Shown here: positions 5,008 to 41,616 of the stretch, in pieces
Numbering within the stretch: the stretch's first letter is position 1
How the letters are laid out: each line of letters begins with the position of its first letter
Virus record (IMG/VR): IMGVR_UViG_3300021964_000070
Location: 1 to 59,538 of that record
Reading direction: 5' to 3' (one strand)
Origin: a virus
Lineage: Duplodnaviria; Caudoviricetes
DNA length: 59,538 bases
The notes under the pieces: generated by a model
Seen by the model: only the letters and a program-made list of their open reading frames with translations
Told to the model about the DNA's origin: nothing
The model's database searches: none
Program-made: the position numbers and the translations under genes

Positions 5008-5402
5008 TATTTTGTAATACCTTTATACTTTTCGAACGACCTCATGCCGCCCAAGCCTAACATACCCAATAATATAGTCATTAAGCTATCCATATCAAAA
5101 GCAGGGTATGAAACAGGGTCATACCCAAGATAGGCACAAATTACATCCGCTGACGGAAATAAAATAAAATGCGCGAATAACGCAACGCCACACGTCCAGC
5201 CAATAAATGGCCTCCAACCGGCCACAAAAATGTTTCGGTGCTTCGCTTCTTCTGCGTTAATAGCCATTTGGCCTTTTGCCATTTCCAAAGCGTGTTTTTC
5301 TGCCATAGTGGCGATTTCATGCGCCAACTTATTTTTTTGGTCTTTGTCCTCTACAAACTTACCAATAAGCTCGGTAGCTGGACCAATCAGTGCTTGTATC
5401 AT
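5007..5402 (-). CDS. Holin (3TM GTA-holin-like)
   Basis: FVAGWRPFIGW and LLGMLGLGGMRSFEK motifs; adjacent to endolysin. Confidence 0.85.
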   Translation of the reverse strand: MIQALIGPATELIGKFVEDKDQKNKLAHEIATMAEKHALEMAKGQMAINAEEAKHRNIFVAGWRPFIGWTCGVALFAHFILFPSADVICAYLGYDPVSYPAFDMDSLMTILLGMLGLGGMRSFEKYKGITK

Positions 5403-9090: not shown

Positions 9091-10119
9091 TCAGTCATAC
9101 CTGTTGATGTCAAAATAACCGTACTTATCACGCGGAAAGAAAATATCTATGCCCGTGTCAGGAGACTTAAACCGCCGCTCACCGGGCTTGCGACCAAGAA
9201 CACGGTCCAACTGCTCAAAAATCGCGCTGTCAACCATCTGGGTAATCTGCTGTGGAGACGCATTGACACCAGCCTTCTTCAATAGCTGGGCCCCAAAAGC
9301 ATTATTCCGCTTGTCCATCACAACGTCCGCATCAGTGGCTGTACCCAAAATGGGCATCCGACGGTCAAAAAACTCAGCTAAACCACCAAACTGCTCCGCA
9401 GTCTCCGGGCCAACCTGCTTGGCAAGTAGTGCAGATTGCAGTACATGAGCACGAGCGTCCTCTAACTCCTGATAAGTAGGCAAGTCATGGCGAGGACGCC
9501 CCGCCCGCATCTGGGCCGTGGTGCTCGTGCCGTAATCTATCTCCCGCTCTACATCAGGGTAGCCATACTCCTCTATCAGAGTAGTCTCAAATGTCGGGGC
9601 CCCTTCAGGATAATACATAGAAGAACCCTCGCTGCCCTCACGGCCAGAATTACGGACGATGTTCTGCTGCCTAGCACTTGGAAGATCAATATTCGGGCTG
9701 AACAGGGCCCCCATAATACCCATCTCTTCAACCTCGCCGCCCTGCTCCATATAACGGTACTTAACATCAGAGCCGCTTAAACGACCCATCATGTTGCCCG
9801 GATTGAGCTCTGGACGAGAAGGAGATGCGTGAGCCGCGTATGGCGACCCGCGGTCCACGGATTGTTCGTAATAGTAACCCTCCATGCCCTCCATGATGGG
9901 CTCATCCATTAAAGTATACCGTGTTCCAGTATTGCCGCGCTCTGCCGGATAAGGGTCACCCTCTCCAGAAAAATAAAAGCCCATGCCCTCTTCATCATAG
10001 GAGGGCCGTGTTGCGCGATAGTAGGCCGCTGGGTCGGTTGCCCCAAACAGCGCCTCATCCATTGACATTCCAGAAAAGTCGTTACCGCCCGCCCCAAGAT
10101 TTACCGCGCTGTCCGCCAT
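9091..10119 (-). CDS. Putative virion cargo protein with DUF6973/serum-amyloid-A-like helical domain
   Basis: EDARAHVLQSALL...MDKRNNAFG resembles the DAxRH...MDxxNNxxG signature; carries MEQGG and GIMGAL motifs. Confidence 0.55.
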   Translation of the reverse strand: MADSAVNLGAGGNDFSGMSMDEALFGATDPAAYYRATRPSYDEEGMGFYFSGEGDPYPAERGNTGTRYTLMDEPIMEGMEGYYYEQSVDRGSPYAAHASPSRPELNPGNMMGRLSGSDVKYRYMEQGGEVEEMGIMGALFSPNIDLPSARQQNIVRNSGREGSEGSSMYYPEGAPTFETTLIEEYGYPDVEREIDYGTSTTAQMRAGRPRHDLPTYQELEDARAHVLQSALLAKQVGPETAEQFGGLAEFFDRRMPILGTATDADVVMDKRNNAFGAQLLKKAGVNASPQQITQMVDSAIFEQLDRVLGRKPGERRFKSPDTGIDIFFPRDKYGYFDINRYD

Positions 10120-11564
10120 TAGTAATATGCCCTTACTTTCACGTATGTTTCTTCATCGTCCCAGTCGTCAGACGGGAGCTGAACAAAGTTTCCTTGACGG
10201 TATCTCATTAAGGCTTGTGTCATGCTGTCCACCAAGTCATCGTATTCGCCGTTAGGAAATGCCGCCACCTCCTCTATCATCTCGTCTGCAAAGGTGGTGT
10301 CGGGGGCCCAAACCATCCCCGCCTCGAAAAGCGGAGATACAGAATGAACACGAGTTATCTTATCATTACCTTTGCTCGGCGTAAAGTTAACAACTGGTAT
10401 TCCCATGTTTCTTAATTCATGTGTGAGCGGTAACCCAGAGGCTTTCGCTTCCACAATCACGGTATCCGGTTCCCAATACTTATACTGGTCCAACGCAACC
10501 TGCTTCAACTCAGGAAAATCCCAGCGGTCTTTCTTACTATCCAAAAGAATTAAACCGGGCGGCCCACCTATCTCCTGTGGCCGGAAAACACCCCACGTGG
10601 TTATGGCTGAGAAGTCGGCTGTCTCGCGTTTAGAAAAAGCGGTATCATAGCTCTGTATAACATATTCGAGATTGGGTATTGCATCTTTCTCCCACCTTTT
10701 CCACCACTGACGAGGGATAATAGCGTTCTCTTCCCCCGTTGGGTTCTGTTGATACTGCGCGTTCCACTTACTGGGTGGAATAGACGCTTTCACTGCTGTT
10801 AAGTCCTCAATAGACCAAAACTCAGGCCAGCAGGGGGACCCGTCATTAAAAATAGCCGGTAGCTCCACAACCTCCCACTGGTCTGCCAAGGGGTCTTTAG
10901 CCATCGCCTTTAATAGCTGCCCCGTCATATCCTTTTCGGACCACCGGGTCTGAACCAAAACAATTGACCCACCCGGCTGGAGACGTTGCCGGGGGCCCCC
11001 AGTGTACCAATCCCACGCATCATCAAAACCACTATTAGACATGGCAGTCTGTTCAGAGTGCGGGTCATCAATAATCACCAAGTCACCACCACGACCGGCC
11101 AGATTGGAGCCAACCCCGACAGCATAATACATCCCGCCAGATGCGGTATCCCAGCGACCAGACGCCTTACTGTCCGCCGCCAGTTTAACACTTGGGAAAA
11201 CTTCCTTGAACTCTTCGCTGTCAATCAGGTTTTTTGTTTTACGGCCAAAGTTAACTGCAAGCTCGGTTGTGTGCGTAGCTTGAATAATCTTCATGCGCGG
11301 GTTCTTGCCCATCATCCAAGCAGGGAACAAGAAAGACGCAAACTCTGATTTCGTATGACGCGGGGCCATGTTGATAATCAGGCGCTTTAGTTCGCCGCTA
11401 GCTACCCGCTCTAACTTTTCAGCAATGATTTTATGATGACGACCAGCAATGAACTCAGGCCACATAGATTTTACAAATGTTAAAAAGTCCGTTTGACAAG
11501 CTTCATTCTTCTCTAATTGAGCTAGCCGCAAACGAAGCTTGGCTTCCTGTTCAGAAACATCCAT
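10119..11564 (-). CDS. terL: Terminase large subunit
   Basis: Walker A APRHTKS, Walker B VIIDDP, QTRW motif, RNase H-like SYDTA and DDLVDS. Confidence 0.95.
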   Translation of the reverse strand: MDVSEQEAKLRLRLAQLEKNEACQTDFLTFVKSMWPEFIAGRHHKIIAEKLERVASGELKRLIINMAPRHTKSEFASFLFPAWMMGKNPRMKIIQATHTTELAVNFGRKTKNLIDSEEFKEVFPSVKLAADSKASGRWDTASGGMYYAVGVGSNLAGRGGDLVIIDDPHSEQTAMSNSGFDDAWDWYTGGPRQRLQPGGSIVLVQTRWSEKDMTGQLLKAMAKDPLADQWEVVELPAIFNDGSPCWPEFWSIEDLTAVKASIPPSKWNAQYQQNPTGEENAIIPRQWWKRWEKDAIPNLEYVIQSYDTAFSKRETADFSAITTWGVFRPQEIGGPPGLILLDSKKDRWDFPELKQVALDQYKYWEPDTVIVEAKASGLPLTHELRNMGIPVVNFTPSKGNDKITRVHSVSPLFEAGMVWAPDTTFADEMIEEVAAFPNGEYDDLVDSMTQALMRYRQGNFVQLPSDDWDDEETYVKVRAYY

Positions 11565-22380: not shown

Positions 22381-24273
22381 TCATTCTGCTTCGCCCCAGT
22401 TAGGGCCGATTTCAATGTCACATTTACTGGGGATTTCCAGCGGCACGGCTGTCTCCATAATTTGTGAAATGTTCACAGCATCTTCACGGTCTTTCACAGA
22501 CATAGCTATCTCATCATGTATTTGCACAAGAGGGATGCGGCCTTGTTCGTATATGTTCACCATTGCCTGCTTTGTCATATCTGCGGCGGATGCTTGGATG
22601 AGCCGGTTCAGGGCTTTGTAAGTATATGCCCGCTTTAGTCTGGTGGTTTCGCCGTATTCTTTTACGGCATCTTGGTAAGGCAGAGCCTTGTTCATGGCAA
22701 ATGTATCGGGCTCCCAGAGGTCAAACCTACATTTGCGTCCTAAGATAGAGCGGACTGAGCCGCTTGCGCCGCGATCATTGAGCCGGTTTTGAACACCCGT
22801 CATCAAGCCTTTAACAAACGGGACTCGATCATGATACTGATTAACTAGCGATTTGGCTTCATCAACGGCAATGTCTAACTGGTCGGATAATTTGTTCACG
22901 CCCATGCCATACATCATACCTAGATTGATGGTCTTGGCCTGCTTGCGCGGGATGTTAGCCATCTCTGCCACCATTGTATGGAAGTCCATATTTGGGTCAT
23001 TGCGGTAGGCATCCACAAATTCTTCTACACCCGCCATCTGTATGCCTTTAGCCTTACCATATACATACGCATAGTGAACCAAGATGCGTGGTTCCTGTTG
23101 TGAGAAGTCAATTGCGGCCCACTGCTCCCCTTCTTCCGGAAGGAACAGGCTACGGATCATTGGCCCTAATACAGGGTCGCGGGCCGGGATCTGTTGGAGG
23201 TTAGGGTTGTTCATGGATATTCGCCCAGAAACCGTGCCGCCATCATCAGACCTGATTTGGTTGATGTGCGAGTGGATACGGCCGTCACTGTGGCAGTGCT
23301 TCATTATGGTGTTAATAAATGTCCCGCTGGTCTTGTTGAGGTTACGGGCCTTAACAATTAACTGCGCCAATTCATGTGGGTGGTCGATTAAAAAAGATTT
23401 CGTGAAGGACGGCGCATTTTTTTCTGTGCGGGGATAATCAATACTGAGCTTATCAAAAGCTTGAGCTATGGACTTTGCCGCCCAGAGCTCGACATCCATA
23501 CCGGCAACACGTTTAATTTGCTTCTTTATTTCTTTCTCTTCTTTTAGAAGATGATCTCTAGTGCGCTCAACACGGTCTTGATCCACACGGACGCCGCGCC
23601 AAGTCATGTCGATTAGACAGGGCAACAGCTTGAGCTCAAGCTCTGCTATGGGCCAGAGGTCTTCTTTTGTTAGCTGGGTAGATAAGTAACCCCATAGCTG
23701 GAGTGTAATCTCTGCGTCATTCTGGGCATACGGTCCAACAAACATGGCGGGCATCTGCCACATATCCGCTTTTGGGTCGAGGCCAAAGGCGCGGGCAGCT
23801 TCCTGTAATGTTTTCTCTGTTTTGATTTTACCTAAATGGTCGTAACACAGAGTGTTAAGGCTGTAGCTGAAACGGTTTTCGTCAAGCAGAGCGGCGATTA
23901 ACATAGTGTCAATAATGCGGCCGTTGATGGTGAAGCCCATCCGGCGTATCCAGCCCGCGTCATATTGAGCATTATGCATAATTTTATCAGCAGGGCACTC
24001 AAACACTTTCTTGAGCCACTTATTTACAATGCGCTCGTCTAGATTACCGCCGCCCTTATGCCGAACAGGTATATATCCAGCCCAGTCTTCTACGGCAATG
24101 GCGTAGCCTACCACTTCGCCATCACCAGTGGTCCAACCCGGCCCCAATGTTTTGATATTGGGGTCGCGGGTTTCAACATCTATAGCTATTCTTTTTGCAT
24201 CAAAGATGTCGGGCAGTTCAGCCGGTGGAACCCATTCGCTCTTCGGGGCAAACATCGTCATTTGCAGTGACAT
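22381..24273 (-). CDS. polA: DNA polymerase family A with 3'-5' exonuclease
   Basis: AIDVET, HNAQYD exonuclease motifs; SGRISMNNPNLQQIP; DFSQQEPR; KTINLGMMYGMG; QIHDE. Confidence 0.95.
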   Translation of the reverse strand: MSLQMTMFAPKSEWVPPAELPDIFDAKRIAIDVETRDPNIKTLGPGWTTGDGEVVGYAIAVEDWAGYIPVRHKGGGNLDERIVNKWLKKVFECPADKIMHNAQYDAGWIRRMGFTINGRIIDTMLIAALLDENRFSYSLNTLCYDHLGKIKTEKTLQEAARAFGLDPKADMWQMPAMFVGPYAQNDAEITLQLWGYLSTQLTKEDLWPIAELELKLLPCLIDMTWRGVRVDQDRVERTRDHLLKEEKEIKKQIKRVAGMDVELWAAKSIAQAFDKLSIDYPRTEKNAPSFTKSFLIDHPHELAQLIVKARNLNKTSGTFINTIMKHCHSDGRIHSHINQIRSDDGGTVSGRISMNNPNLQQIPARDPVLGPMIRSLFLPEEGEQWAAIDFSQQEPRILVHYAYVYGKAKGIQMAGVEEFVDAYRNDPNMDFHTMVAEMANIPRKQAKTINLGMMYGMGVNKLSDQLDIAVDEAKSLVNQYHDRVPFVKGLMTGVQNRLNDRGASGSVRSILGRKCRFDLWEPDTFAMNKALPYQDAVKEYGETTRLKRAYTYKALNRLIQASAADMTKQAMVNIYEQGRIPLVQIHDEIAMSVKDREDAVNISQIMETAVPLEIPSKCDIEIGPNWGEAE

Positions 24274-29743: not shown

Positions 29744-29784
29744 TTGACATAACCCTATATATGCTTATATACTCTCAATGTCAA
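29744..29784. promoter_or_regulatory. Overlapping divergent sigma70 promoters
   Basis: + strand TTGACA(29744)-18-TATACT; - strand TTGACA(29784)-17-TATATA; octamers phased at 10 bp. Confidence 0.75.
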
Positions 29785-29795
29785 GGAGAAATGTT

Positions 29796-31244
29796 ATGCG
29801 GGATTATATTTTTAAAACAAAGCCTTTTAAACACCAGCAGAAAGCTTGGGAAGACTCGTGGGCCGCGGACTATTATGCGCTGTTCATGGAGATGGGTACG
29901 GGCAAATCTAAGGTGGCTATTGATACAATTGGCGCATTATATAAAGCCAAGAAAGTAACAGCGGCATTAATCCTAGCCCCTAAAGGTGTGTATGACAACT
30001 GGGTAAAGGGAGAAATTCCAACTCACTTACCAGATGATATTGAACGGACTGTTGTGCGCTGGTCACCCTCTAACGCTAAAAAGTTTCAGGAAGAAATGAA
30101 AGAGCTGGTATATGACAAGTTCGAGGGCTTGAAGGTGTTTGTCATGAACATTGAAGCGCTGTCCACGCCACGCGGCACAAAAGCCGCTTATATGTTTCTT
30201 ACTAAAAACCCTGCTAATATTATGGTGGTTGATGAAAGCACCACTATTAAGAATAGGAAAGCTACGCGCACTAAGAACGTGATGATCTTAGCTAAAGACG
30301 CTAAATATAAACGCATACTTACCGGCTCCCCCGTAACTAAAAGCCCAATGGATTTATACAGCCAGTGCTTTTTTCTGGACGAGAGAGCTCTGGGTTTTAA
30401 TAGTTACTATGCCTTTCAAAATAGGTACGCCCTTGTTCAAAAACGGAAGATGGGGACTAGAGCGTTTCAGGAAATTGTCGGCTACAGACGGCTAGATGAA
30501 TTAAATGTCAAGCTTGACAAGTTCAGTAATCGTATTCTGAAAGAAGAATGTTTGGACCTGCCGGATAAAATGTATATACGGCGGGACGTTGCGCTCACGG
30601 ACGAGCAGAAAAAAATGTATATACAAATGAAAAAGCTGGCGCTTGCCCAATTAGAAAACGGGGAATTAGCTACCACTGCCAGCGTATTGACGCAAATAAT
30701 GCGTCTTCAGCAAATTTGTTGCGGCTTTCTTCAACCAGATGACGGGGAAATCCAGACTTTGGATAATAACCGGATGAAGGAACTACTGGAGATAACCGAC
30801 GAGCTTCAGGGAAAGGCTATCATTTGGGCGTCATATACTCATGACATCCAACAGATATCTGATGCCCTGCGCGACCGCTTTGGGCCCGATGCGGTCGCAA
30901 CTTATTATGGGGCTACGCCTCAAGATGAACGGCAGGAAATAGTAAACCGCTTTCAAGATAAAGAAAGCCCGTTACGGTTTTTTGTCGGTCAGCCACGGAC
31001 AGGGGGCTACGGGATCACCCTGACCGCGGCTAACACGGTGATATATTACTCTAATAGTTATGATTTGGAAATACGTTTGCAGTCAGAAGATAGAGCGCAT
31101 CGTATCGGGCAGGCTAACAAGGTGACATATATTGACCTAGTATCCCCCGACACGATTGATGAGAAAATACTCAAAGCCTTACGCGGTAAGATTGACCTTG
31201 CCGGTAAGGTGTTAGGGGAAGAGGTTAAGGACTGGTTAGTTTAG
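29796..31244 (+). CDS. SNF2-family (SF2) helicase
   Basis: MEMGTGKS, VVDES, LTGSP, GGYGITL, QSEDRAHRIGQ; AAGGAG RBS before MRDY. Confidence 0.92.
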   Translation: MRDYIFKTKPFKHQQKAWEDSWAADYYALFMEMGTGKSKVAIDTIGALYKAKKVTAALILAPKGVYDNWVKGEIPTHLPDDIERTVVRWSPSNAKKFQEEMKELVYDKFEGLKVFVMNIEALSTPRGTKAAYMFLTKNPANIMVVDESTTIKNRKATRTKNVMILAKDAKYKRILTGSPVTKSPMDLYSQCFFLDERALGFNSYYAFQNRYALVQKRKMGTRAFQEIVGYRRLDELNVKLDKFSNRILKEECLDLPDKMYIRRDVALTDEQKKMYIQMKKLALAQLENGELATTASVLTQIMRLQQICCGFLQPDDGEIQTLDNNRMKELLEITDELQGKAIIWASYTHDIQQISDALRDRFGPDAVATYYGATPQDERQEIVNRFQDKESPLRFFVGQPRTGGYGITLTAANTVIYYSNSYDLEIRLQSEDRAHRIGQANKVTYIDLVSPDTIDEKILKALRGKIDLAGKVLGEEVKDWLV

Positions 31245-32248
31245 TCGTATAAACTAGCTATACCCATCATGTCCGCAAATGATTTACCGGTTTTTGCTAT
31301 CTGGTCATAGATAGAAGGCTGTTGTCTGGTGCTAGTTATGCCACCTCTTGATGCCGATGTATAAGTATTACCCTTCTTAGCTAGGTTCCCTTGATACGTG
31401 GTTTCGCCGGGTAAGTTTCCAAAAACATTAGTAAACGTATCTAGAAACGCGGTTGAAGTTGGGTTATTTAAACCTGTTTGAGTAGGCTGGTAGTTATTCA
31501 TGCCTTGTGTCAAAGCAGACATGATACCGCTGCTGGTTATAGGTGAGCTGTTGAACGATACCCGGCCATTTCCGCTAAATAAGTCAGTAGGCGCTGTATA
31601 TTCAAACCCAATACTACCGCTTCCAACATTTGGGGTAAGTGTCCCGCCCTGCCCAAACGGGTTTTCGAGGCCAAAATTAACGCCGCTCCCCTGATTAACA
31701 TTAGGGGTAGAATAACCGCCACCTTTTGTGGGCTCGTTTAAACCTAATGTTGGGATGTCGTAAGCTGGGATGTCGTAAGACGGCTTGTTTACATCGCCAA
31801 ATGCTTCGCCCAATCGCCCTGAAATATCTGTTGTGGGGCGGTCCATAAAACCAGCAGAAGAAGATAGGTCCCCCAAGCTAGGGCCGTCAGCCGCGCCCTG
31901 TCTACCCTGAAACCCAGAGTCCAATATAGCTTGCGACACTCTCCCTTGGATGCTGTCCGCCAGCGCATCTTTACGGGCTTGGTCTGCGTTAAAAGAGCCG
32001 CCCATCCTGCCTCTAGGGTCCATAACGTCCGCACGGCCCATTCCGCTACCGCCGCCCGGTGAGCGGTCATTCCTGTCGTCATAGCTGGGTTTGCTGGTAC
32101 CGCCGCCACCGCCACCGCCGCCGCCACCGCCGCCGCCACCGCCGCCGCCGTCGCCGCCGTCGCCGCCGAAGCAGTAGAACTTGCTTTCAAAACTCCCGTC
32201 ATCGAAGCTTTGGTCTAAGCCATCTGACCATCTCTTTTTATACAGCAC
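31241..32248 (-). CDS. Gly-rich putative ejection/internal virion protein, candidate acylation substrate
   Basis: Leader...KFYCFGG followed by poly-Gly; C-terminal GIASL; overlaps HlyC-like gene. Confidence 0.55.
   Translation of the reverse strand: MLYKKRWSDGLDQSFDDGSFESKFYCFGGDGGDGGGGGGGGGGGGGGGGGTSKPSYDDRNDRSPGGGSGMGRADVMDPRGRMGGSFNADQARKDALADSIQGRVSQAILDSGFQGRQGAADGPSLGDLSSSAGFMDRPTTDISGRLGEAFGDVNKPSYDIPAYDIPTLGLNEPTKGGGYSTPNVNQGSGVNFGLENPFGQGGTLTPNVGSGSIGFEYTAPTDLFSGNGRVSFNSSPITSSGIMSALTQGMNNYQPTQTGLNNPTSTAFLDTFTNVFGNLPGETTYQGNLAKKGNTYTSASRGGITSTRQQPSIYDQIAKTGKSFADMMGIASLYD
32099..32167 (-). repeat. GGC/GGT trinucleotide tract encoding GGDGGD plus poly-Gly
   Basis: (CCG/CCA)n run visible on + strand. 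Confidence 0.9.
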
Positions 32249-32687
32249 AGCAATATCTCCTTACTTCTAATTCTGACTGTACGCCAGTAGCATAGCCAAG
32301 CCTCTTACCTTGAGCTTGACGAATAAAGTTAGCACCATCAAATTGATAGGTTTCAATGTAGCGCTTCGTCAGAACCTTTTGTGCAAATCTACTTAGTTTG
32401 AGTGCGTTCTTGTACGGCGCTATGAAATCTATCACATACAGCATACCATCATCTGGCCCGTTGCTCCAGATGTCCGCTGGTAATTTTTTCGAACCGTCCT
32501 TATACCCCTCTTCTACCTCTTTAGGCAAAAAAGCGTAGGAGAAAAGGCCCGCGGGCCGCGTTTCGTCATACATGACCAGCATCTTTTTGTTTTCCAAAGC
32601 TGGAATAACTAGACGCTTCATATCTTCGATGTACCATTTGCGGTGCATCTCCGATTCCATCATCAATTTCAAAACGTCGTGTATCAT
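32238..32687 (-). CDS. hlyC: HlyC/CyaC-family toxin-activating acyltransferase
   Basis: LMMESEMHRKW (catalytic S/H), LVIPAL, PAGLFSYAFL...EEGY, IWSNG...LYVIDFIAPY (catalytic D). Confidence 0.85.
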   Translation of the reverse strand: MIHDVLKLMMESEMHRKWYIEDMKRLVIPALENKKMLVMYDETRPAGLFSYAFLPKEVEEGYKDGSKKLPADIWSNGPDDGMLYVIDFIAPYKNALKLSRFAQKVLTKRYIETYQFDGANFIRQAQGKRLGYATGVQSELEVRRYCCAV

Positions 32688-32690
32688 AAA

Positions 32691-35600
32691 TCAACCCATA
32701 AGGCTTCCAATGCCCTGTTGACGGATCATGCTAGAAGCTATGTCGTTAGGGAACATAGCGGCGTAACCCGCCCGGTTCACCGGACCAGTTTGAGGCGCGG
32801 GAGGCGCGGGCCGCGGTGCGGGAGGAGGGGATACCGACGCAAGAGCGGTTGTGGGAGGAGGTGCCGCTGGTTGCGCCGGAATTAGTTGTGACGTTTGCTG
32901 TGGCTGTTCTGGCGGTAGCTCTGTTTCGAGTATCTCGTCCCCAGTTTCGCGGAGCATGAATGGAACGGCGCGTCTAACTGGACGGAAGCCTAAGTCAATT
33001 AAAGTGTCACCAATTACTTTGCCGATCTGTAGCCTTTCGCGCTCAGACCGCGGCTTACGCATCATCTTAGCCAAAAGCTCTGGGTTTTTCATTAGCTCAG
33101 ACATAACATCCATCTTCATGGATTCTGGTACATCTTCGAAGATTTGACGCATCATACGCGAACCTGCGGAACGAGCAATTAGAGACTGTGTGTCCCCCGT
33201 TACGCCAGCTATCTTGCCACCAAGCGCAGAACCGGTGATACGTAAGTAAAAGTCAAGCATAGGCCCAGCATCTTTTGCAATCTCAGCAAGGCTACCGTCT
33301 ACATCTGCCACCTCAATCCGGACCATCTCGGTTAAGACTTTTTTGATCTGGTTGATTTCAGTTTCCGTTGCTAGGTTTTTACCCAGCATATAATCTGCCA
33401 GCGACATACGTGTATTTACGTTTTTCATCTGGCTAAACAGTTCATCATACATAGCACGGGGGCTAAAGCTACGGCCAGTTCCGCCAGCCGCGGTCATAGC
33501 AGACTCAAGTAGCGTAGCCTTGAACCCGTCTCTAGCACTTTGACGCATACCCTCTGGGGCGTTTTCTGTAAGCTTTAAAATATTGTTTAGAGATTTCAAC
33601 GGAACCTTGCCGTTAATAGCCTGCCTCACAACCAAAGTGGGGTTATCGACATTGTTTGGCAGCAAATTCTGGAAGTTAACTTCATCCTTCAACTGAGTTG
33701 CGCGGCGTTTATTATCTAACCGGGTATCACTCAGTAAAACTTGGGCAGTAGAGGCGTTCTCAAGGTCAGCTTTAAGCGCAGGAAAACCATCCGGCCCAAG
33801 AAGAGCTTCATTATCTTGAATCCATTTATTCAAAGCGCGGAAATCTATCTCACGGGTGATTTCACCTGTCTCTGGGTTGCGGACTTCTTTAAAAGAGGCG
33901 GCTCTGGCATTGCGTAACAAGCTTTCAATCGTGCCATTGATTGTTTTAGCGGTTTGTTCTGCGCCTTCTAGACCTTGCGTTTGAGCGAAGTCAATTACGC
34001 CCTGAAGTTGCTGTATTCTGAGCGCGGTTGGCTCACTGCCGCCTTGAAATAATCGTTGCGCTAACAATTCTGGCGCTAACCTTTCCGCTCCAGTCTTCGT
34101 GGTAGACAGAATATCCCCAGCAAAAGCACGGGTAAAGGTGTCATTAAGTGACCGGGAGTATGCACGAGCTATGTCGTAAGCTACGTCATCCCCTTGCCGG
34201 ATGCTTTCTAGATCGTTAAGCAGGGAGTCCGCAAAAGAGAACGCGATACGGGCGGCATTCGTATTGCCTTGCGCCTGCATTTGGCGGCCAAGATTTAAAG
34301 CCACAGAACGCATATCCTGTATCTCTGACATCATAATTCCACCGGTTGCGGGGGTTTCGGCCGTCGCCGCGGCGGGCTTTTGAATTGGGTTTTCTAAATC
34401 GTCCGCTCTGGCTCTAAGTAAAGCAGCCTCCTGCCGCACCTGCTCCGCCATATCCGCAAACTGCTGGCCGCTGGCCGGGTCTTGGCGATAAATTGCTTCG
34501 TTTTGAACAGCAACCTGATCATTAGTATCTGCCATTTTACGCAAGGCGTCTGGGTCCATCATGTCCTGTTCTGGAAGAACTTGACGGCCCTCAGTAGAAC
34601 GTGTCTTGGCGTCTCTAGCTAACCGTTGATTAAAGGAATCTAAAGCGCTCTGATTTATATTTGGAATAAGCTCATCTACCCGGCTAACCGCTTCGGGAGC
34701 AGCTTTCGGGCCAACTGGTATAATTTCTGCTTGCGCGTCTAGTAGGTTTGCATAGTCCTTACTGCGCTTACTAGAAAACTTACCCCGGTTTCTGGACGCT
34801 TCTTCCCTCAACCGCTTTATCTGCTGATCAGCGGGCAAATCTGACATTTGAGACATTAAGTTACTAAACTTGTCCTCAAAAGCTGTCCCGGTGATTTTAG
34901 AAAAAGCCGTATCTACTTTCCGCCTAGCTGGAGAAGTGGTAGCTGTGGAGGGGGCGGCAGTAGCCGTCATCCCTAATTCAGTCAGCTTGCGGTCAACGAA
35001 AGAAGCTAGGGGCCGCAAATCGTTGTTTATGATTGCCGCTGCTTCTGGCGTTTTTGGCATAATAGATTGCCAAGTTGTTATAAAGTTAGGAGCGTCCAGA
35101 GCGTTTCCTTCTGCATCTACAAACTCTGTTATCTCCCTGTCCGGAATATCCTTCCAGAGCTTGCGTTCTTGTCTACGGGCAAGCTCAAGTTGGTTTTGAA
35201 CTGTATCGTATAACCTTTGAGACAACAATGCGTTCTTCTCCGGGGCTTCGCCTTGCACCCGGCTAAACGCAGAAAGCACGTTGTCGGTGGCCTGCTGTAA
35301 TCTAGCTGTTTGACCAGCAACAAAAGCGTCTTGGGCCAGCCCTGCCGCCAGTTTAATAGCTTCTGGATTGCCGGAACCTTCCGGGCCGCGAGATGTCATT
35401 ATGATACTTGAGATTACGTTACGCAGAGCGTCGGCCGCTCTTTTGTTCTGTAGCTTTCGCTCACGGCCTAATCCGGGGCTACTTGTAGAAAGCGCCATTT
35501 CAATAGCCATCAACGCGGGGCTTTCTGATTTCATACCCGCAGTTAGCTTAATGGGCTGACCAGCTTCATCAAAAAGCTCTTTAGTTAAATCTTCTGAAGC

Positions 35601-36851
35601 CAAGCGCTCTATAATTGTATCAACATCTTCCCCTTGCGATTCGAGAATATCCATAATCCGCTGTACGCCTGCGGCCTGTCGAGATGTTTTTAATACGCTT
35701 AAACCTTCTTTTAGGCCGCCGCTTTTAAACTTAGACAGGGCCTCTCCCAAAACGCTTTTAATAACAGGCGCTTTTTCTATTAGCGTAGAGCCTACTATGC
35801 CGGGAGCAAAACCAAAACCAACTTCCATTGCAAGACGTGTTCCGCCCTGACCCGGATAAGCGGTTTCAGCCGTATAAGCCCCAGCCGCGGACCCCGCCCC
35901 TGCAAGAAGTTCTGTAGCACCAGTAGGAATTGGGTACTTACGAGCGGTTTCGCCAGTACGGCCCAAAAGGCGCTCTATGGCAGAAATAAACCGCGTAGAA
36001 CCCGGAGTGGTGCCTTTCTGTGCGCCAGCCGGGGCTTTTAGGTATGGGACAAAAACGCCGTCCTGCATACGCACCCCGTATTTAGATGGTCCCAAACCAC
36101 CTATAGCCTGTTTTACACCGGGAGTTGCCAGCGCTTCCGCTGTAAGCGGACCCGGCTGTTTAGCTAGGTTCATTACATTGTCTAGGTATTGTGTGGCCCC
36201 AAAAGAAACAGTTTTTGGGATTACATACGGTAACGGCAACCAGCCCACCGCGCCACCGGCGGTTTTACCGGCTTCATAAGCGGCTCTTGTTCCCGGAGTT
36301 ACCGCCTTTTCTTTTCCTAAGAATAAGTCAGTCGCCGCTTCCCCTGCCTCATAACCAGTAAGCGCCCCGATTACACCGGTTACCAGAGGCGTCCCAAATT
36401 TCAGCGCTATCGTAGGAGGGGTTACGGGGGGAACACCTGACACGGCAGCGGCACCAAGTTTTGCACCGGCATAAAAACCGGCCAAGCTAGAAGCAGAAGG
36501 ACCAACTTCACGCTTCAGTCCACCAAAAAACGTGCCCTCTTCAAAAGGCAGACCTTCCTCGTCCCGCGCAAAGATGTTAATTAGCTCAACATCCGACATA
36601 GGCTGTTCGTATTTAAGGCCCTGACCAGCCAACGCCTTATAGAGCGGGTGCTCCATGAAGGTGTCCGGGTTTTTTAGCGCACTATAACCCCCGGATAAAA
36701 TATTAGGCTCCGCAGTAGCGAACTCATCAACAAGCGTTTTTGCCAGAAAAGCGTCAGGCCCTTCTGGAGCATCATTAAAAGCCTCGTAAAAGTCATCTAT
36801 CTGACTTTTGGTCAACCTAACCGGCTCAGATTTAATAATTGGCTCTGCCAT
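32691..36851 (-). CDS. Large internal virion/DNA ejection protein
   Basis: 1386 aa; Ala-rich helical; N-terminal Gly-rich hydrophobic segments; C-terminal AAMFPND...GIGSL. Confidence 0.7.
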   Translation of the reverse strand: MAEPIIKSEPVRLTKSQIDDFYEAFNDAPEGPDAFLAKTLVDEFATAEPNILSGGYSALKNPDTFMEHPLYKALAGQGLKYEQPMSDVELINIFARDEEGLPFEEGTFFGGLKREVGPSASSLAGFYAGAKLGAAAVSGVPPVTPPTIALKFGTPLVTGVIGALTGYEAGEAATDLFLGKEKAVTPGTRAAYEAGKTAGGAVGWLPLPYVIPKTVSFGATQYLDNVMNLAKQPGPLTAEALATPGVKQAIGGLGPSKYGVRMQDGVFVPYLKAPAGAQKGTTPGSTRFISAIERLLGRTGETARKYPIPTGATELLAGAGSAAGAYTAETAYPGQGGTRLAMEVGFGFAPGIVGSTLIEKAPVIKSVLGEALSKFKSGGLKEGLSVLKTSRQAAGVQRIMDILESQGEDVDTIIERLASEDLTKELFDEAGQPIKLTAGMKSESPALMAIEMALSTSSPGLGRERKLQNKRAADALRNVISSIIMTSRGPEGSGNPEAIKLAAGLAQDAFVAGQTARLQQATDNVLSAFSRVQGEAPEKNALLSQRLYDTVQNQLELARRQERKLWKDIPDREITEFVDAEGNALDAPNFITTWQSIMPKTPEAAAIINNDLRPLASFVDRKLTELGMTATAAPSTATTSPARRKVDTAFSKITGTAFEDKFSNLMSQMSDLPADQQIKRLREEASRNRGKFSSKRSKDYANLLDAQAEIIPVGPKAAPEAVSRVDELIPNINQSALDSFNQRLARDAKTRSTEGRQVLPEQDMMDPDALRKMADTNDQVAVQNEAIYRQDPASGQQFADMAEQVRQEAALLRARADDLENPIQKPAAATAETPATGGIMMSEIQDMRSVALNLGRQMQAQGNTNAARIAFSFADSLLNDLESIRQGDDVAYDIARAYSRSLNDTFTRAFAGDILSTTKTGAERLAPELLAQRLFQGGSEPTALRIQQLQGVIDFAQTQGLEGAEQTAKTINGTIESLLRNARAASFKEVRNPETGEITREIDFRALNKWIQDNEALLGPDGFPALKADLENASTAQVLLSDTRLDNKRRATQLKDEVNFQNLLPNNVDNPTLVVRQAINGKVPLKSLNNILKLTENAPEGMRQSARDGFKATLLESAMTAAGGTGRSFSPRAMYDELFSQMKNVNTRMSLADYMLGKNLATETEINQIKKVLTEMVRIEVADVDGSLAEIAKDAGPMLDFYLRITGSALGGKIAGVTGDTQSLIARSAGSRMMRQIFEDVPESMKMDVMSELMKNPELLAKMMRKPRSERERLQIGKVIGDTLIDLGFRPVRRAVPFMLRETGDEILETELPPEQPQQTSQLIPAQPAAPPPTTALASVSPPPAPRPAPPAPQTGPVNRAGYAAMFPNDIASSMIRQQGIGSLMG

Positions 36852-36854
36852 GCG

Positions 36855-39203
36855 TTATTTCCCAAATATCATCTTACGAGCCGCGGAGGTATTGTCGCTA
36901 TCAAACCCCTGCTGTTTTGCATTGTAAGCGTTTAAGAAAACGCCATAACCGTCTTTTAGCTGGTTCATCTGCATGATATACGTTTTGGCGTCTTTATACT
37001 CTTTACTATCTAAGGGAAGCGAATCCAGCTTATTCTGCAATACGGCGGTCGCATTATCAATCATGCCAACAATTTTATTGATTTTATCCGCGGAAGCTTC
37101 TGGCCCTGTGAAAAGCGCTGTCGGCGACGGGGTAAGCTCTTGAAGAAGTTTAGCTTGGAAAACGCTCTCCCGAAGTTCTGCTGACTTTTGAAAAACCTGC
37201 AAGAAGTTCTGGTTTAAAGTTTTTGCCGCATTGATCGCTGACTTTTCCGGTTTATACGGTGCAGAAGCCGTCACAAATTCAAACAAATTATTTATTAGGT
37301 TTTTACCGGCAGCTATTGAACCAAAAGCCGTCATAGGTTCAGTAAGCCCTTTAGTTACCTGATTTTCAAAGCTTGCTTGTGCAGGAGACTGAGCTACAGT
37401 CTCGTCCGATTTCCTACCTTCAAACTTGATGTTAGGGATGGTAAGACCATTATCTTGACGCATCTGAATAGAGCTTAGTAGTTCGTTAGATAGCGGGTTG
37501 CCCGGTACAATAACAAAATCTTTCTTCTCTTCGCTCCACGCAGTCTTAGGCGCGTTGTAGTAAGCAATGGCTTGGTTCATTTCTAGAGTTTCATCCTTGT
37601 CCAAGGTGCCCGCAGCATACTTAGCTAGCCGCTCTGTATCAGAAAGGAGGGTCGTGATCCGCGCATTGGTGTTCGAGCCCAGCCGTGTAAGTCTCGCCGC
37701 CGCCTCTTCAAGAGCCAGTTTGCTGTTCTTGTAGCCTTTTTCAAACTCATTCATGTCGGCTTCCATAGCCAGAGCCTGTTCTTGCAGATCAATCTTGCGC
37801 TGACCTTGTGCTCGATCAACCTCGGCCTTAATTGTATCGAGTTTGAGGCGGCGCTCATCTAGCTCTCTATCCAGACCGGACAGCTTTTCTTTCAGAGCGT
37901 TGTTTGTGTTGTTAAGCTCTGTTGCCTGCTCATGGGCCTTGTCCATCTTGGCAAGGTCATACTCGTTAGCTACGCCCATCTTACCCAAGTCAATGTTCGC
38001 TTGGATTTCCATGTTTTCTTTCTTGAGCTTGTCGGCCAAGACAATATCCGCGGTGCTACCAGACTGCTCAAGCTTCTCAATAGCTACCCGATTTTCTTGC
38101 TGGACACCTTCCAAAGCTACCCGACCGGCCTGCTTCTGAGTTTCCAGATCAGAGGCCCCTTGTTGTTTTAAGGTTTCTATAGCCCTCTGACGCGCAGTGT
38201 CTAGTTTAGACCCTAGTTCAAGTTTAGCTAAATCTTGAGCCCCAATTAGCTCTTGTTTTTTCAATTCTGATGCGGCTTTCGCTTCCGCCGCCAAACCAGT
38301 TTCTGCGGCACCAAGAGCAGACAGCTTGAGCTGCTGCCGCTGTGCTTTAGCCGCGGCCTCTTTATCTAGCTGTGCTTGTGCACGAGCACCAATAGTCTGG
38401 GGAAGTTGCGTGGTCCGTGCGGCGTAGGCCAAGCGCTCTGCTGGGCTCATGCCACGGCGCTCTCCTTCCATTGGCGCAGCAAACGTCAACGCGGTGTTGG
38501 CGATATCAAACAGCATTTGCGCTTGAGTTAGGTTTTTCTGCTTTTCAAGATCAGCGGTAGGGTCGCCAAGGATGCTGGTATAAAGACCCTCTCTCTGCTT
38601 ATATAGCTCACCTAGACGGCCAGCTTGAGCAAACGGGTCCCCACCTTCCTGCATCATTTTGACTGGCTGGTTGTCTCCGCGGCGGACCAGCCCGCCCTTG
38701 TTAAAATTTACAGGGGGCGGCCCCTCCATAGGCATGGGCGCAGGTTCTGGTTGTGGTATGGTAGACATAATGCCCCCGGCCATATCCCCTTCAACGGGCT
38801 CGGCCATTTCGGCTTGAGCCAGCTCACCAATACCTTGATCAACGGCGTTCAGCATCATAACAGGCTGAATTAAGGCCAGAACGGACTCAGGTGTTTGGGC
38901 CGCGTCCTCTGGGCCAACTACCGCGGCTAACTCATCATAACGGGCTTCTATAGAGGCTTCATCTCCACGAATGGAGTTCATCATACCCTCAAAGTCTTCC
39001 GCAGAGTCGATGGTCTGTAATCCTTCACTCGCGGTGGCTAGCATCTGCTGAACCACATCAGGGTTAGCCACTTGACCAGCTTGTTCCAAAGCAGAATCCA
39101 CCATAGGGGCTTGCGCCGCACCAGCGGCGGCTATTGCCGGAGCGGCTTGGGCAACTCCACCATTGGCAAACATCTGCCGTTGTAAGACGTTTCTATTCAT
39201 CAT
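36855..39203 (-). CDS. Internal virion/ejection protein, long coiled coil
   Basis: 782 aa; three [FM]xxGG motifs; coiled-coil repeats. Confidence 0.7.
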   Translation of the reverse strand: MMNRNVLQRQMFANGGVAQAAPAIAAAGAAQAPMVDSALEQAGQVANPDVVQQMLATASEGLQTIDSAEDFEGMMNSIRGDEASIEARYDELAAVVGPEDAAQTPESVLALIQPVMMLNAVDQGIGELAQAEMAEPVEGDMAGGIMSTIPQPEPAPMPMEGPPPVNFNKGGLVRRGDNQPVKMMQEGGDPFAQAGRLGELYKQREGLYTSILGDPTADLEKQKNLTQAQMLFDIANTALTFAAPMEGERRGMSPAERLAYAARTTQLPQTIGARAQAQLDKEAAAKAQRQQLKLSALGAAETGLAAEAKAASELKKQELIGAQDLAKLELGSKLDTARQRAIETLKQQGASDLETQKQAGRVALEGVQQENRVAIEKLEQSGSTADIVLADKLKKENMEIQANIDLGKMGVANEYDLAKMDKAHEQATELNNTNNALKEKLSGLDRELDERRLKLDTIKAEVDRAQGQRKIDLQEQALAMEADMNEFEKGYKNSKLALEEAAARLTRLGSNTNARITTLLSDTERLAKYAAGTLDKDETLEMNQAIAYYNAPKTAWSEEKKDFVIVPGNPLSNELLSSIQMRQDNGLTIPNIKFEGRKSDETVAQSPAQASFENQVTKGLTEPMTAFGSIAAGKNLINNLFEFVTASAPYKPEKSAINAAKTLNQNFLQVFQKSAELRESVFQAKLLQELTPSPTALFTGPEASADKINKIVGMIDNATAVLQNKLDSLPLDSKEYKDAKTYIMQMNQLKDGYGVFLNAYNAKQQGFDSDNTSAARKMIFGK

Positions 39204-39982
39204 CCGAATAACCCCGCTTTCTGTGCGCCTGCCGCCGCGGACAAGCCTGATATACCTAAACCTAGAAATTGTTGAGCTGGCGAAACATTAGGAGAAGTCG
39301 AGGAAGCAATTGTTTGCTGTGAAGACGGTATCCCCTTATAAATGTCTGACAAGAAGCTGTAGCGCTGATAGGGCTCATACAATTGAGCCAAGTCGCTCTG
39401 GCGTTTTGCCTCAAGCTCGGCCTGCTGTTGTGACTGCTGGCGCTGTCCCATGTCAAATATATAGGACGCTTCTTTTTGTCCCAGACCTTGCCCCAATTCT
39501 GCCATAGTACCATACGAGGCGGCAGCTTTGCGTTGAGCGTCTTGAGCCTGTAAATATGCCTGCGCTTCCGCCTGTGCCAATGCCTGCGCCCTGTTTCTAC
39601 CGATTTCTGCGCGTTGTATTGCGTCCCGGCCACCGCCAAAAGCGCCCGCGCCAACCGCGCTAGCGCCTGCACCGGGGGTCTGCATATCAAAAGAACGGTT
39701 TATTTCATCACGAACAGCTTGCTGATAAGGGTTCATGTATTGACCAATGTTAGATGGGTCTAAAGCGGCACCGGCCTTCTGCAAGTAGGGCAAATATGAC
39801 CCCAACCCCTGCCCAGCATAATCCAAAGCGGCCTTCTGTAGCCCAGACATTTCCGCTATCTGCTGAATTGGCAGAGTTATATCTTGGGCAATTAAGTCTT
39901 TAGCGTCGGCTAATAGTCCTAGTCGATAGGCTTCTACCGCGGGATCTTCGCGGATAATTTGAATTTCGGTATTGGTAGCCAT
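39200..39982 (-). CDS. Internal virion/DNA pilot protein
   Basis: YMNPYQ, AVGAGAFGGGR, Gln/Ala-rich, hydrophobic Gly-rich C-terminus. Confidence 0.7.
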   Translation of the reverse strand: MATNTEIQIIREDPAVEAYRLGLLADAKDLIAQDITLPIQQIAEMSGLQKAALDYAGQGLGSYLPYLQKAGAALDPSNIGQYMNPYQQAVRDEINRSFDMQTPGAGASAVGAGAFGGGRDAIQRAEIGRNRAQALAQAEAQAYLQAQDAQRKAAASYGTMAELGQGLGQKEASYIFDMGQRQQSQQQAELEAKRQSDLAQLYEPYQRYSFLSDIYKGIPSSQQTIASSTSPNVSPAQQFLGLGISGLSAAAGAQKAGLFG

Positions 39983-41616
39983 TATGCCATCGCCTTTCCA
40001 CGAGCTTCAAGACCGCGCATCATGTCGTACATACGATTTATGCCGACTTGATTATTACCGTTGCCTAAACCCCGTACAGCATCCGTGGTCATCACAAACT
40101 CACCCGGCATTAACATGGCGCGAACGCTGTCTTTTCCCGGAAGGCCCTCATTAGGCATGATGCCACCTACCCGACGTGGGAAGACGCTACCACCATCAGC
40201 GTATAACGGAATAGGAATAACTCTGTTATACCCATATTGGGTGTCTACCACGTAGTCGCCTTGCGAACCGCGGATCACGGGGCCGCTAGTGCTCCCGCTT
40301 GGACGATAGAACTCCTCATTCTCACGGAACACGTCCATGCCGCTTGGCCCAGCTATTTCATCAATGTCTGGCTGGTCGTCGGGTTCAGGCTTGTCAAAGA
40401 AGCCGCCTGCTAGAGCCGCCCCGCCTGCTAACGCGGCGCCCGGAGCAAAGGTACGCATAAAGCCGGGGGCAGAGCTTTCTGCAAGAGCAGTAGCATCAGC
40501 TACCGACATTCCGGGGTTAGCCTCGAAAATTTCAGAAGCACTTTGCCCACTAGGGAAGAACATATCTTTAGTGCTCTCAAGGAAGCCCTTTCCTCCGGGG
40601 GTTACTGCATCTTTTGCGCTCTCAAAGAAGCCGGGGGCTTCTCTAAACACCGGTCTGCGTGAGCCTCCTGCGCTATCCCCTAAGAAGCGCCCTGCCTCTG
40701 ACCCTGTTTCTACCGGGGCACCTGTTTGCAAAGTGGTGCTGGCGTCGGTCATAGTCCCCTGATCCAGACCCGCATACTTGCCGGTTGGGTCTAAGGTATC
40801 TACAGGGGCAACATCTGCGGTAGTTACCGTATCCGGCTGGAACCCACCAGTGATGGTATCAAAGCCCTTGCCGCTAATTACGTCAGAAATGCCGCTACCA
40901 GTTTGAGATAACCTAGCCATTGGGTTAGCCAGCTCAGACTGGATGTTTTTCATAAAGCCGCCCTTGCCTAATCCGGAAAAGCCTTTAAACAGAGCACCTG
41001 TACCACCAGCTATCAAAGCGCTCTTAAAGGCGTCCTTCAAGCTACCGCCCTGAATAAGAGTACCAATACCTGAACCTAAAGCGGCACCATAAATTGCGCC
41101 TAGTGGGGTGAAGGCAAGAGCTATAGGAAGAATAGTCGGAGCTACCTTCTTCAGCACTTTACCCACGCTACTAACAGCTTTTTTAACGCCTTTAGCTACG
41201 CCAGATACCGCCCGTTTAATGCCCCTAAAAATCTTCTTCAAAAAGAACTCAGGCATCCCTGTTTCAGGGTTGATTGAGTTTGCCCCCGAACCAACCACAT
41301 ACCGCTCTGGGTCGTCTATGCCCAAATCACGTAGGTGATTAAAGATGGACTCTTTTAATCTAGGGTTTTGGTCTATGAGTGCTTTAGGTACAATAAGCTC
41401 ACCTGTTTCCACGTGAGCTACCGTGTCATCACCATAGCGTCCGTAAGAGGCCATGCGGCGCGCAACTGGCTCAAAGTTAGCAATACCAGAAGAACCAAAT
41501 TCCTGTTCCGCCTCTTCTCTTTCAAGGGCTTCAATCTCGTGGTCTTCCATGTAAAAGTCAGCAATTCCTCCGGAGGGGATGCTGAACTCTTCCTTTTTTG
41601 CGGCGGCTGTAGACAT
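39982..41616 (-). CDS. Internal virion protein with amphipathic cationic helix and two GD-AxL-GEFV-like domains
   Basis: GRYGDDTVAHVETGE...NPETGMPEFFLKKIF...; Gly-zipper; DSVRAMLMPGEFVMT. Confidence 0.7.
   Translation of the reverse strand: MSTAAAKKEEFSIPSGGIADFYMEDHEIEALEREEAEQEFGSSGIANFEPVARRMASYGRYGDDTVAHVETGELIVPKALIDQNPRLKESIFNHLRDLGIDDPERYVVGSGANSINPETGMPEFFLKKIFRGIKRAVSGVAKGVKKAVSSVGKVLKKVAPTILPIALAFTPLGAIYGAALGSGIGTLIQGGSLKDAFKSALIAGGTGALFKGFSGLGKGGFMKNIQSELANPMARLSQTGSGISDVISGKGFDTITGGFQPDTVTTADVAPVDTLDPTGKYAGLDQGTMTDASTTLQTGAPVETGSEAGRFLGDSAGGSRRPVFREAPGFFESAKDAVTPGGKGFLESTKDMFFPSGQSASEIFEANPGMSVADATALAESSAPGFMRTFAPGAALAGGAALAGGFFDKPEPDDQPDIDEIAGPSGMDVFRENEEFYRPSGSTSGPVIRGSQGDYVVDTQYGYNRVIPIPLYADGGSVFPRRVGGIMPNEGLPGKDSVRAMLMPGEFVMTTDAVRGLGNGNNQVGINRMYDMMRGLEARGKAMA

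Follow-up and report, generated by a model that had tools for sequence, protein, structure and literature searches.

A phage-encoded acyltransferase of the toxin-activating type is recurrently paired with an oligoglycine protein that it may lipidate

Introduction

HlyC, CyaC and ApxC are toxin-activating acyltransferases (TAATs), enzymes of about 150 aa whose genes share a cluster with that of the RTX (repeats-in-toxin) protein they lipidate. Catalysis by TAATs relies on a conserved His/Asp dyad, with His24 in ApxC and His37/Asp107 in CdiC (PMC8510554), and the characterised enzymes described in PMC8510554 and PMC8953716 all acylate the epsilon-amine of an internal lysine, in HlyA within Gly-Lys motifs (PMC8510554). 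A member of this family is encoded by the virus studied here, in a 59,538-base stretch of DNA (the window) that represents a complete IMG/VR virus record, IMGVR_UViG_3300021964_000070, 100 % complete by CheckV. Its gene overlaps that of a 335-aa partner protein with a short leader and a run of glycines. An original prediction, made from the window without database searches, held that the phage lipidates one of its own virion proteins, either at a Lys, Cys or Gly near the KFYCFGG motif of the partner or at the Lys-rich helix of a 544-aa protein.

The phage enzyme resembles HlyC, CyaC and ApxC by family profile, by sequence similarity to ApxC and by predicted fold, in its size and His/Asp dyad, and in sharing a gene cluster with its presumed substrate. 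It differs in coming from a lytic podophage without RTX repeats and in having a Gly-rich presumed substrate with no similarity to RTX acylation segments, the favoured candidate acceptor being a glycine at the N-terminus in place of a lysine inside the chain. CdiC of class IV contact-dependent inhibition (CDI) systems is likewise a TAAT co-opted for a non-RTX delivery protein, CdiA, which engages the target outer membrane, and loci without this enzyme also lack the acceptor feature (PMC8510554). As described in the same source, CdiC places 3-hydroxydecanoate on the internal Lys1467 of a secreted bacterial filament, whereas the predicted acceptor region in the phage is an N-terminal oligoglycine.

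Acylation at a conserved N-terminal glycine bared by leader removal, as considered here, has been described for AatD acting on CexE/Aap in Escherichia coli (PMC7943197). The Aat system is presented there as similar to type I secretion and the Lol pathway, with AatD acting during secretion (PMC7943197). The leader of CexE is a Sec signal peptide, whereas the phage leaders are not hydrophobic signal peptides. AatD is not known to be a TAAT.

In animal viruses, myristoylated VP4 is thought to act in the membrane penetration of animal cells. By analogy only, such N-myristoylated penetration proteins are similar to the phage case in being capsid-internal proteins with a glycine-linked N-terminal fatty acid; they differ in borrowing the host N-myristoyltransferase (NMT), an enzyme of a different GNAT-type family, whereas the phage would bring its own enzyme of the toxin-activating type. 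Picornavirus VP4 is myristoylated by host NMT (PMC6089459).

For phage HlyC, the mentions retrieved were a figure-legend abbreviation in the preprint 'Novel pelagiphages prevail in the ocean' (10.1101/2019.12.14.876532) and GenBank product names. In a full-text literature search, with most subscription journals outside its scope, no paper was retrieved that addressed what a phage TAAT does or that described a lipidated virion protein in a tailed phage. New here is that the pairing of enzyme and oligoglycine protein recurs in 149 evaluable viral contigs spanning two deep enzyme lineages.

Family assignment of the acyltransferase

The 149-aa product contains ESEMHRKW, IWSNGP and VIDFIAPY, motifs of the kind from which HlyC-family membership had been proposed. 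The Pfam search suggested at that time gave a match to HlyC (PF02794) that scored 63 bits, above the curated cut-off of 25, and covered profile positions 4-111 of 127 (E 3.3e-17); the score was 62.8 bits when the whole record was searched. The protein also matched phrog_20210, a family of unknown function, and was matched by sequence to the solved structure of ApxC, 4WHN (E 2.1e-7). In the alignment to 4WHN, H15 falls on the histidine of HRKW and D87 on the aspartate of IDWIAP; the position of H15 corresponds to native ApxC His24, provided that the 183-residue chain owes its 11 extra residues to a tag. The dyad aspartate of ApxC is one that we take to be Asp93. When an AlphaFold2 model of the enzyme (pLDDT, the predicted local distance difference test score, 60.2) was searched with Foldseek, the top three matches were 4WHN chains (E 4.4e-6 to 2.5e-5, TM scores 0.52-0.53), followed by GNAT acetyltransferases.

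Both H15 and D87 were invariant in the 16 sequences aligned of the 63 available for the window's own group (group A, defined below). In an alignment of groups A and B, the His was kept in 15/15 sequences and the Asp in 14/15, with Glu in the remaining one. Taken together, the profile, sequence and fold matches identify the 149-aa protein as a member of the HlyC/TAAT acyltransferase family, and with its retained His/Asp dyad the enzyme is probably catalytically competent.

A conserved RRY[CS]C(A)V forms the C-terminus of group A enzymes (32238-32258 in the window), and this conservation is partly forced because the segment overlaps with the ribosome-binding site and start of the next gene.

The downstream partner protein

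The coupling to the neighbouring gene that had been described was confirmed. The two genes overlap by 11 nt, the enzyme stop TAA lying at 32240-32238 and the GTG start of the partner at 32248, and the partner has a Shine-Dalgarno sequence of its own (Table 1). The partner consists of the leader MLYKKRWSDGLDQSFDDGSFESKFYCF, GGDGGD, (G)17 and then T..., a low-complexity Gly/Ser/Thr/Asn/Pro-rich body and the end MMGIASLYD. The giant 1386-aa protein encoded directly upstream of the enzyme ends in QQGIGSLMG, similar in form to GIASLYD, so the C-terminal motif noted as shared with the ejection proteins was also confirmed.

Among 24 aligned group A N-termini, E21, G29, D30 and G32 were invariant, and K4, K5, R6, W7, D9, G10, L11, F20, K23, F27 and G31 were nearly so. 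A protein atlas lookup gave unnamed viral clusters only. A complex prediction for the enzyme with partner residues 1-50 scored 0.12 against a mark of 0.32, which counts neither for nor against an interaction.

Three other identities considered for the partner were ruled out. A lysis protein is ruled out by the holin and endolysin genes present elsewhere in the window and by the lack of a signal peptide or lipobox in the partner. An RTX calcium-binding repeat is ruled out for GGDGGD, which is a single unit with no array and no PF00353 match. A double-glycine leader bacteriocin or microcin precursor is ruled out by the lack of a peptidase or exporter match in the 32 open reading frames (ORFs) of the window that were searched against PHROG or Pfam, and by partner lengths of 199-1194 aa across the groups described below.

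As had been noted from the sequence, the genome appears to be free of RTX toxins: the RTX repeat profile (PF00353) had no match in the whole 59.5-kb genome, and the same search was positive in 2/14 control genomes. Each window ORF searched against PHROG or Pfam gave phage-type matches or none; type I secretion genes were not searched by name.

Conservation of the pair across viral contigs

Three sets of viral contigs carrying relatives of the enzyme, groups A, B and C, were compared, with 149 loci evaluable in total. Group A is the window type, with enzymes 40-72 % identical (35 loci). Group B is founded on the enzyme of Roseobacter phage CRP-235, which is 26.5 % identical to that of the window, and has 35 loci, of which 34 were evaluable (the L079 locus is cut). 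CRP-235 is described as an HMO-2011-type phage (PMC9038755). When 50,697 phage records were searched by tblastn with the window enzyme or with CRP-235 gp30, it was the sole isolate found. A profile built on groups A and B retrieved 1310 proteins (E up to 0.001) from 1.84 billion representatives; 12 distant proteins from this set led to 151 further viral loci, group C, the best 80 of which were analysed. Thus the module is present in at least 221 IMG/VR contigs (35 + 35 + 151 relatives). Enzyme identities place groups B and C as sisters (35-58 %), with group A distant from both (about 24 %).

The conserved pairing that had been predicted was found in 149/149 loci and extends beyond the window's own group. 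In group A, an ORF starts between -29 and +9 nt from the enzyme stop in 35/35 loci. Its product has a KKRWxDGL...ExKFx[CL]F leader followed by x-G-D-G-G in 30/35; L032 has another leader, ending in IFCF-GGDPGNGGGGGG, and the four loci L033-36 have a homologous leaderless partner that begins M[AS]GDKSG and has the body stretch DSRGNTVNFNTKP in common with L032. The C-termini of group A partners read G[IL][GA]S[LIV]... For group B, the next ORF starts 1-2 nt past the enzyme stop, behind AAGGAG, in 34/34 loci, and its product begins with MG or MS and then glycines, mostly as MGGGGG(G)(G)D/T (MSGGGG in four, MGGSKK in two, MGGGGKK and MGGGSGE in one each). For group C, an ORF lies within -11 to +3 nt of the enzyme stop in 80/80, and 76/80 products have still other leaders followed by a glycine run at about residues 15-30. 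Most of these leaders are of the form M[IL]YNPFMP...x[FRYW], with MMMMKWKNPGITYF or MLNNMKWQNSGITYF in four; the partners of L138 (MSGGGG) and L159 (MGGSS) are leaderless.

Taking a Gly-rich patch to be three or more Gly among 5 residues anywhere in positions 1-45, we found one in 137/149 partners (31/35 in group A, 32/34 in group B and 74/80 in group C) compared with 40/457 background ORFs, namely other ORFs of at least 150 aa with distinct N-termini from the same loci. GGGG occurred in 103/149 partners vs 3/457 of these other ORFs. Among 107 distinct N-termini with a GG run, the residue preceding the run was F in 61, the initiator M in 20, R in 8, Y in 7, S in 6, D in 3, E in 1 and W in 1. 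The leader sequences are unrelated between groups (KKRWxDGL...KFxCF, YNPFMP... and KWKNPGITYF), and partners with and without leaders occur in both deep lineages (L032 and L033-36 in one, groups C and B in the other). In many partners of groups B and C, the first 40-50 residues are entirely free of lysine. From these alignments, the glycine run is the single feature common to all groups.

The variety of leaders could also point to a re-purposed TAAT fold acting as a chaperone, as a leader-recognition or leader-processing factor, or in the transfer of a non-fatty-acyl group. Leaders that differ between enzyme groups are as expected from leader-guided peptide maturation, and P0128, a 988-aa representative, has an HlyC domain (residues about 858-958) fused to the C-terminus of a large phage-like protein, right after DFAKGGRV. 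The His/Asp dyad is nonetheless kept in the three sampled groups, and the leaderless partners of group B (34/34) still come with the enzyme, so leader handling would not be its sole role. To our knowledge, GNAT-fold enzymes are not known as proteases, which also counts against this explanation, and we regard it as quite improbable. The P0128 fusion hints that the acyltransferase is part of a virion protein in some phages and may be packaged.

Two further observations concern the wider set. A profile scan of genome contigs with one narrow pattern gave two bacterial loci, the inspected one being an ordinary RTX locus, and is uninformative on bacterial relatives of the pair. The group B partners L050:2043-4613 and L067:1447-4617 had Apolipoprotein A1/A4/E matches of 48 and 37 bits, below the cut-off of 90, and RHS repeat matches of 26.2 and 32.3 bits, above the cut-off of 22 although no single stretch passed alone. 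These matches suggest amphipathic helical repeats in the two partners, the apolipoprotein match being probably compositional.

Joint presence and absence of enzyme and oligoglycine module

To compare related genomes, viral contigs were scanned with the C-terminal 400 residues of the 1386-aa giant protein, and the 32 contigs obtained were then searched in six frames for both genes. The enzyme was found in 3/32 and the KKRW-leader/GGDGG protein in the same 3, with neither in the other 29. Most of the giant-protein relatives end in ...FPND...GIGSL.., with GIGSL in 28/32 and GIESL, GIASL, GIGSM and one RMRGTA in the rest. For phage DSL-LC04, the giant protein (31 % identity) is the last gene of the operon, and both the enzyme and the Gly-protein are absent. 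The enzyme was also not found in the isolates HTVC023P, HTVC027P, 023Pt_psg01, CRP-902 and MinM2.

Homologues of the group C partner body were present in 26 phage records, and seven of these homologues were inspected. For CRP-2, HMO-2011, CRP-603, CRP-207 and CHOED, no PF02794 match was found, and the homologues have ordinary N-termini with no YNPFMP...GGGG module; that of CRP-2 has a short FPGGGQ at residues 20-24. The remaining two, HTVC103P gp59 and HTVC115P gp47, also have ordinary N-termini, and the HlyC homologue is located elsewhere in both genomes. Since enzyme-free isolates have homologues without the module, the enzyme is seen on this comparison to track the N-terminal leader/oligoglycine module and not the remainder of the partner. 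The same phyletic logic has been applied to CdiC and CdiA Lys1467 (PMC8510554).

This distribution bears on the proposal that the target is a host molecule, such as an envelope protein, a lipid or another amine, modified for envelope remodelling, superinfection block or counter-defence, with the neighbouring gene co-inherited and functionally separate. The HlyC homologue of HTVC103P, which lies among early/replication genes and away from the structural genes, would fit a host target. The all-or-none co-occurrence with the leader-Gly protein (3/3 present, 29/29 absent), the tight translational coupling in 149/149 loci and the tracking of the enzyme by the N-terminal Gly module rather than by the rest of the partner all argue against one, and we consider it to have little probability.

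One giant-protein contig, L189, has a 923-aa ORF downstream of the giant protein in which an internal poly-glycine of more than 25 Gly comes after a stretch that ends in ..YVCEGILSHN and resembles the C-terminus of a Hint/intein-type domain.

Proposed substrate and acceptor

The best-supported interpretation, favoured by the family assignment and the pairing, is that the downstream protein, which is probably an ejection protein, receives a lipid from the enzyme, with host acyl-acyl carrier protein (acyl-ACP) as donor; this would retain the core of the original prediction, and we regard it as somewhat more likely than not. The partner is proposed as the substrate because TAATs of RTX and CDI systems lipidate proteins of their own cluster. 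Under this proposal, the enzyme would be produced late in infection, its gene lying at the end of the tail/ejection-protein operon, would take its acyl chain from host acyl-ACP, as suggested by the TAAT family, and would place the chain on the N-terminal region of the protein whose gene overlaps its own 3' end.

Of the acceptors originally suggested, the Cys of KFYCFGG must be given up: it is Leu in 3/24 aligned N-termini (L010, L012 and L031) and also in L013, and has no equivalent in groups B and C, so S-acylation of this residue is ruled out as a general mechanism. The Gly appears the most likely acceptor. We tentatively propose that the podophage TAAT transfers a fatty acyl chain to the alpha-amine at the N-terminus of an injected virion protein, an oligoglycine end exposed by removal of Met or of a clade-specific leader; the glycine run is common to all groups, and the acceptor role assigned to it is a possibility put forward with less confidence than lipidation of the partner as such. 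This alpha-amine is favoured because lysine is absent from many group B and C N-termini, Cys and Lys are group-specific, and the leaders are unrelated and dispensable, which would leave it as the sole nucleophile that all partner forms can offer. Methionine aminopeptidase removes Met before Gly. For MGGGGG forms, the glycine amine would be exposed by removal of the initiator Met, and for leader forms by cleavage behind the aromatic residue just ahead of the run, which in the window would be Phe27|Gly28 with removal of a 27-residue leader. A glycine chain without side chains and ending in an amine may sterically resemble a lysine side chain, which would give a simple reason both for a lysine acyltransferase accepting oligoglycine and for the glycine requirement. 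The lipid, carried on the flexible glycine linker of a disordered protein, would help insertion or anchoring at the host envelope during DNA ejection. CdiA lipidated by CdiC has been proposed to insert its lipid into the outer leaflet (PMC8510554).

An orthodox lysine acyltransferase would be the more conventional alternative, with Lys23 of the leader, the 544-aa Lys-rich amphipathic helix or the 1386-aa protein as target and the glycine run merely a linker or a packaging/processing signal. This agrees with the lysine specificity of the characterised TAATs and, for group A, with the presence of K23 in 23/24 N-termini, a residue kept in the window's own group only. The Lys-rich helix persists as a weaker alternative through HTVC115P, in which the HlyC homologue precedes a protein with a Lys-rich N-terminus, several G-K pairs and then a hydrophobic stretch, and the N-terminus of this protein (gp45) resembles residues 126-163 of the 544-aa protein (BLASTP E 3e-5 over 38 aa). 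Counting against lysine are the lysine-free N-termini of groups B and C, the absence of the enzyme from 29/32 giant-protein relatives, and the arrangement in group B, where the upstream neighbour varies and the downstream Gly-protein is constant. Moreover, the HTVC115P enzyme has Tyr for the catalytic His, and HTVC103P has the same Lys-rich protein (MGSVFKR...) with no enzyme adjacent. On balance a lysine target is unlikely, and ranks above a host target or a re-purposed fold.

Several observations weigh against glycine-directed lipidation of the partner. An alpha-amine acceptor would be unprecedented among the TAATs described in PMC8510554 and PMC8953716, and K23 would allow an orthodox Lys acceptor within the leader of group A. 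The AlphaFold2 model of the enzyme, built from a shallow alignment, is of low confidence. The partner had no Pfam or PHROG match, and its placement as most likely an internal virion (ejection) protein follows from operon position and the shared C-terminal motif. No candidate for a leader-removing protease was found in the window by PHROG or Pfam, and the portal-to-capsid genes, where a prohead protease could be expected to lie, gave no protease homologue. The Gly criterion is failed by 12/149 partners, and SALAALAAS stands in place of the glycine run in L101 and L102 of group C. Finally, the HTVC103P homologue (gp34, L175:2959-3408, 61.7 bits), in its early/replication module, is followed by a 107-aa coiled-coil protein without a glycine run, and the HTVC115P homologue (gp46, L169:4994-5443, 57.9 bits), in the structural module, has Ala at the conserved Ser in addition to the Tyr substitution and directly precedes a 417-aa protein that starts MGAISRVFKG and has a Lys-rich segment and a hydrophobic stretch. 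Both homologues are annotated only as toxin-activating lysine-acyltransferase, and these two phages keep the lysine-helix and host-target alternatives alive.

The Ala/Leu-rich stretch of L101 and L102, SALAALAASLL, follows a YNPFMP leader and is not a simple frame-shifted glycine run; it might be a lipid-independent hydrophobic substitute.

The passage of podophage ejection proteins across the Gram-negative envelope is poorly understood, and a lipid tag made by the phage would be a new entry principle. If the proposal is correct, the partner would be the first case of a tailed phage using an enzyme of its own to lipidate a virion protein, and would parallel in prokaryotes the myristoylated proteins with which animal viruses penetrate membranes. 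The reach of the TAAT family, so far RTX toxins and CdiA, would then take in viral proteins and perhaps a new acceptor, the N-terminal glycine. The module is widespread in marine podophages, and some of its carriers are related to abundant ocean phage groups (HMO-2011-type and HTVC023P-like). An enzyme of about 150 aa with a short tag (MGGGGG or a leader) is a compact pair that might serve for protein lipidation, and the question is directly testable in CRP-235, which is cultured and carries the group B pair.

Location of the pair and genome context

The window is identified as an HTVC023P-like podophage because its portal is ~50 % identical to those of pelagiphages HTVC023P and HTVC027P, phage DSL-LC04 and 023Pt_psg01. 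A megablast search of positions 30000-37000 against isolated phages gave no match. Almost every gene of the window is on the minus strand, and searches of 32 ORFs against PHROGs and Pfam gave the assignments in Table 1. The tail-fibre-like genes are followed by a series of large proteins of 544, 260, 782 and 1386 aa, one of which has an ejection-protein PHROG match, and the acyltransferase/partner pair then closes the late operon, convergent with an SNF2-type helicase gene (29778-31244, plus strand). Residues 844-1375 of the giant protein are 31 % identical to a DSL-LC04 protein annotated 'DNA transfer protein', suggesting that it is probably a DNA-transfer/ejection protein.

In CRP-235 the pair lies between tail fibres and lysozyme, and the 844-aa protein that comes next has ejection-protein (phrog_4287) and transglycosylase matches. 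In one group C contig the pair comes just after the tail-fibre genes and before a protein with tape-measure-like matches. From gene position, the pair probably belongs among the internal virion/ejection proteins.

Table 1. Features of the window referred to in the text, with coordinates in the 59,538-base record
Feature	Position	Strand	Basis
HlyC/TAAT-family acyltransferase (predicted), 149 aa	32238..32687	-	Pfam PF02794, ApxC, Foldseek
Translationally coupled partner gene, 335 aa, candidate acyl acceptor	31241..32248	-	ORF list; partner in 35/35 group A loci
Shine-Dalgarno AAGGAG, 8 nt before partner GTG, within the end of the acyltransferase gene	32257..32262	-	Read from sequence
Leader, codons 1-27, MLYKKRWSDGL..F.E.KF.CF	32168..32248	-	Alignment of 24 N-termini
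Glycine run GGDGGD(G)17, codons 28-50, mixed GGC/GGT codons	32099..32167	-	Sequence
C-terminal motif GIASLYD	31244..31264	-	Translation
Giant protein, 1386 aa, directly upstream of acyltransferase	32691..36851	-	DSL-LC04 similarity
260-aa operon protein	39200..39982	-	phrog_4287 'DNA ejection protein', E 8.4e-6
544-aa protein, Lys-rich helix then hydrophobic segment (residues about 125-180)	39982..41616	-	Translation
Tail-fibre-like proteins	about 41.9-55 kb		PHROG/Pfam match
Family A DNA polymerase	22381-24273		PHROG/Pfam match
Large terminase	10119-11564		PHROG/Pfam match
Portal	6585-9020		PHROG/Pfam match
Holin	5007-5402		PHROG/Pfam match
Endolysin	4495-5007		PHROG/Pfam match
GroES-like co-chaperonin	3820-4272	-	phrog_3188, E 7.9e-17
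Major capsid protein	866-1774		PHROG/Pfam match

Two short motifs recur in the ejection operon. G[IL][GA]SL is found at the end of the 1386-aa protein (32694-32714) and of the 335-aa partner. A second motif, [FY]A.GG.V, occurs as MFANGGV at the N-terminus of the 782-aa protein (39146-39166) and as YADGGSV near the C-terminus of the 544-aa protein (YADGGSVFPRRVGGIMP, about 40060-40110), and FAKGGVV is found ahead of a GIGGL end in group A partners; the DFAKGGRV that comes before the fused HlyC domain of P0128 is another instance. These motifs could represent a packaging, docking or processing signal.

The GroES-like gene of the window lies between the lysis and capsid genes, as in HTVC023P, where gp36 is annotated as co-chaperone GroES.

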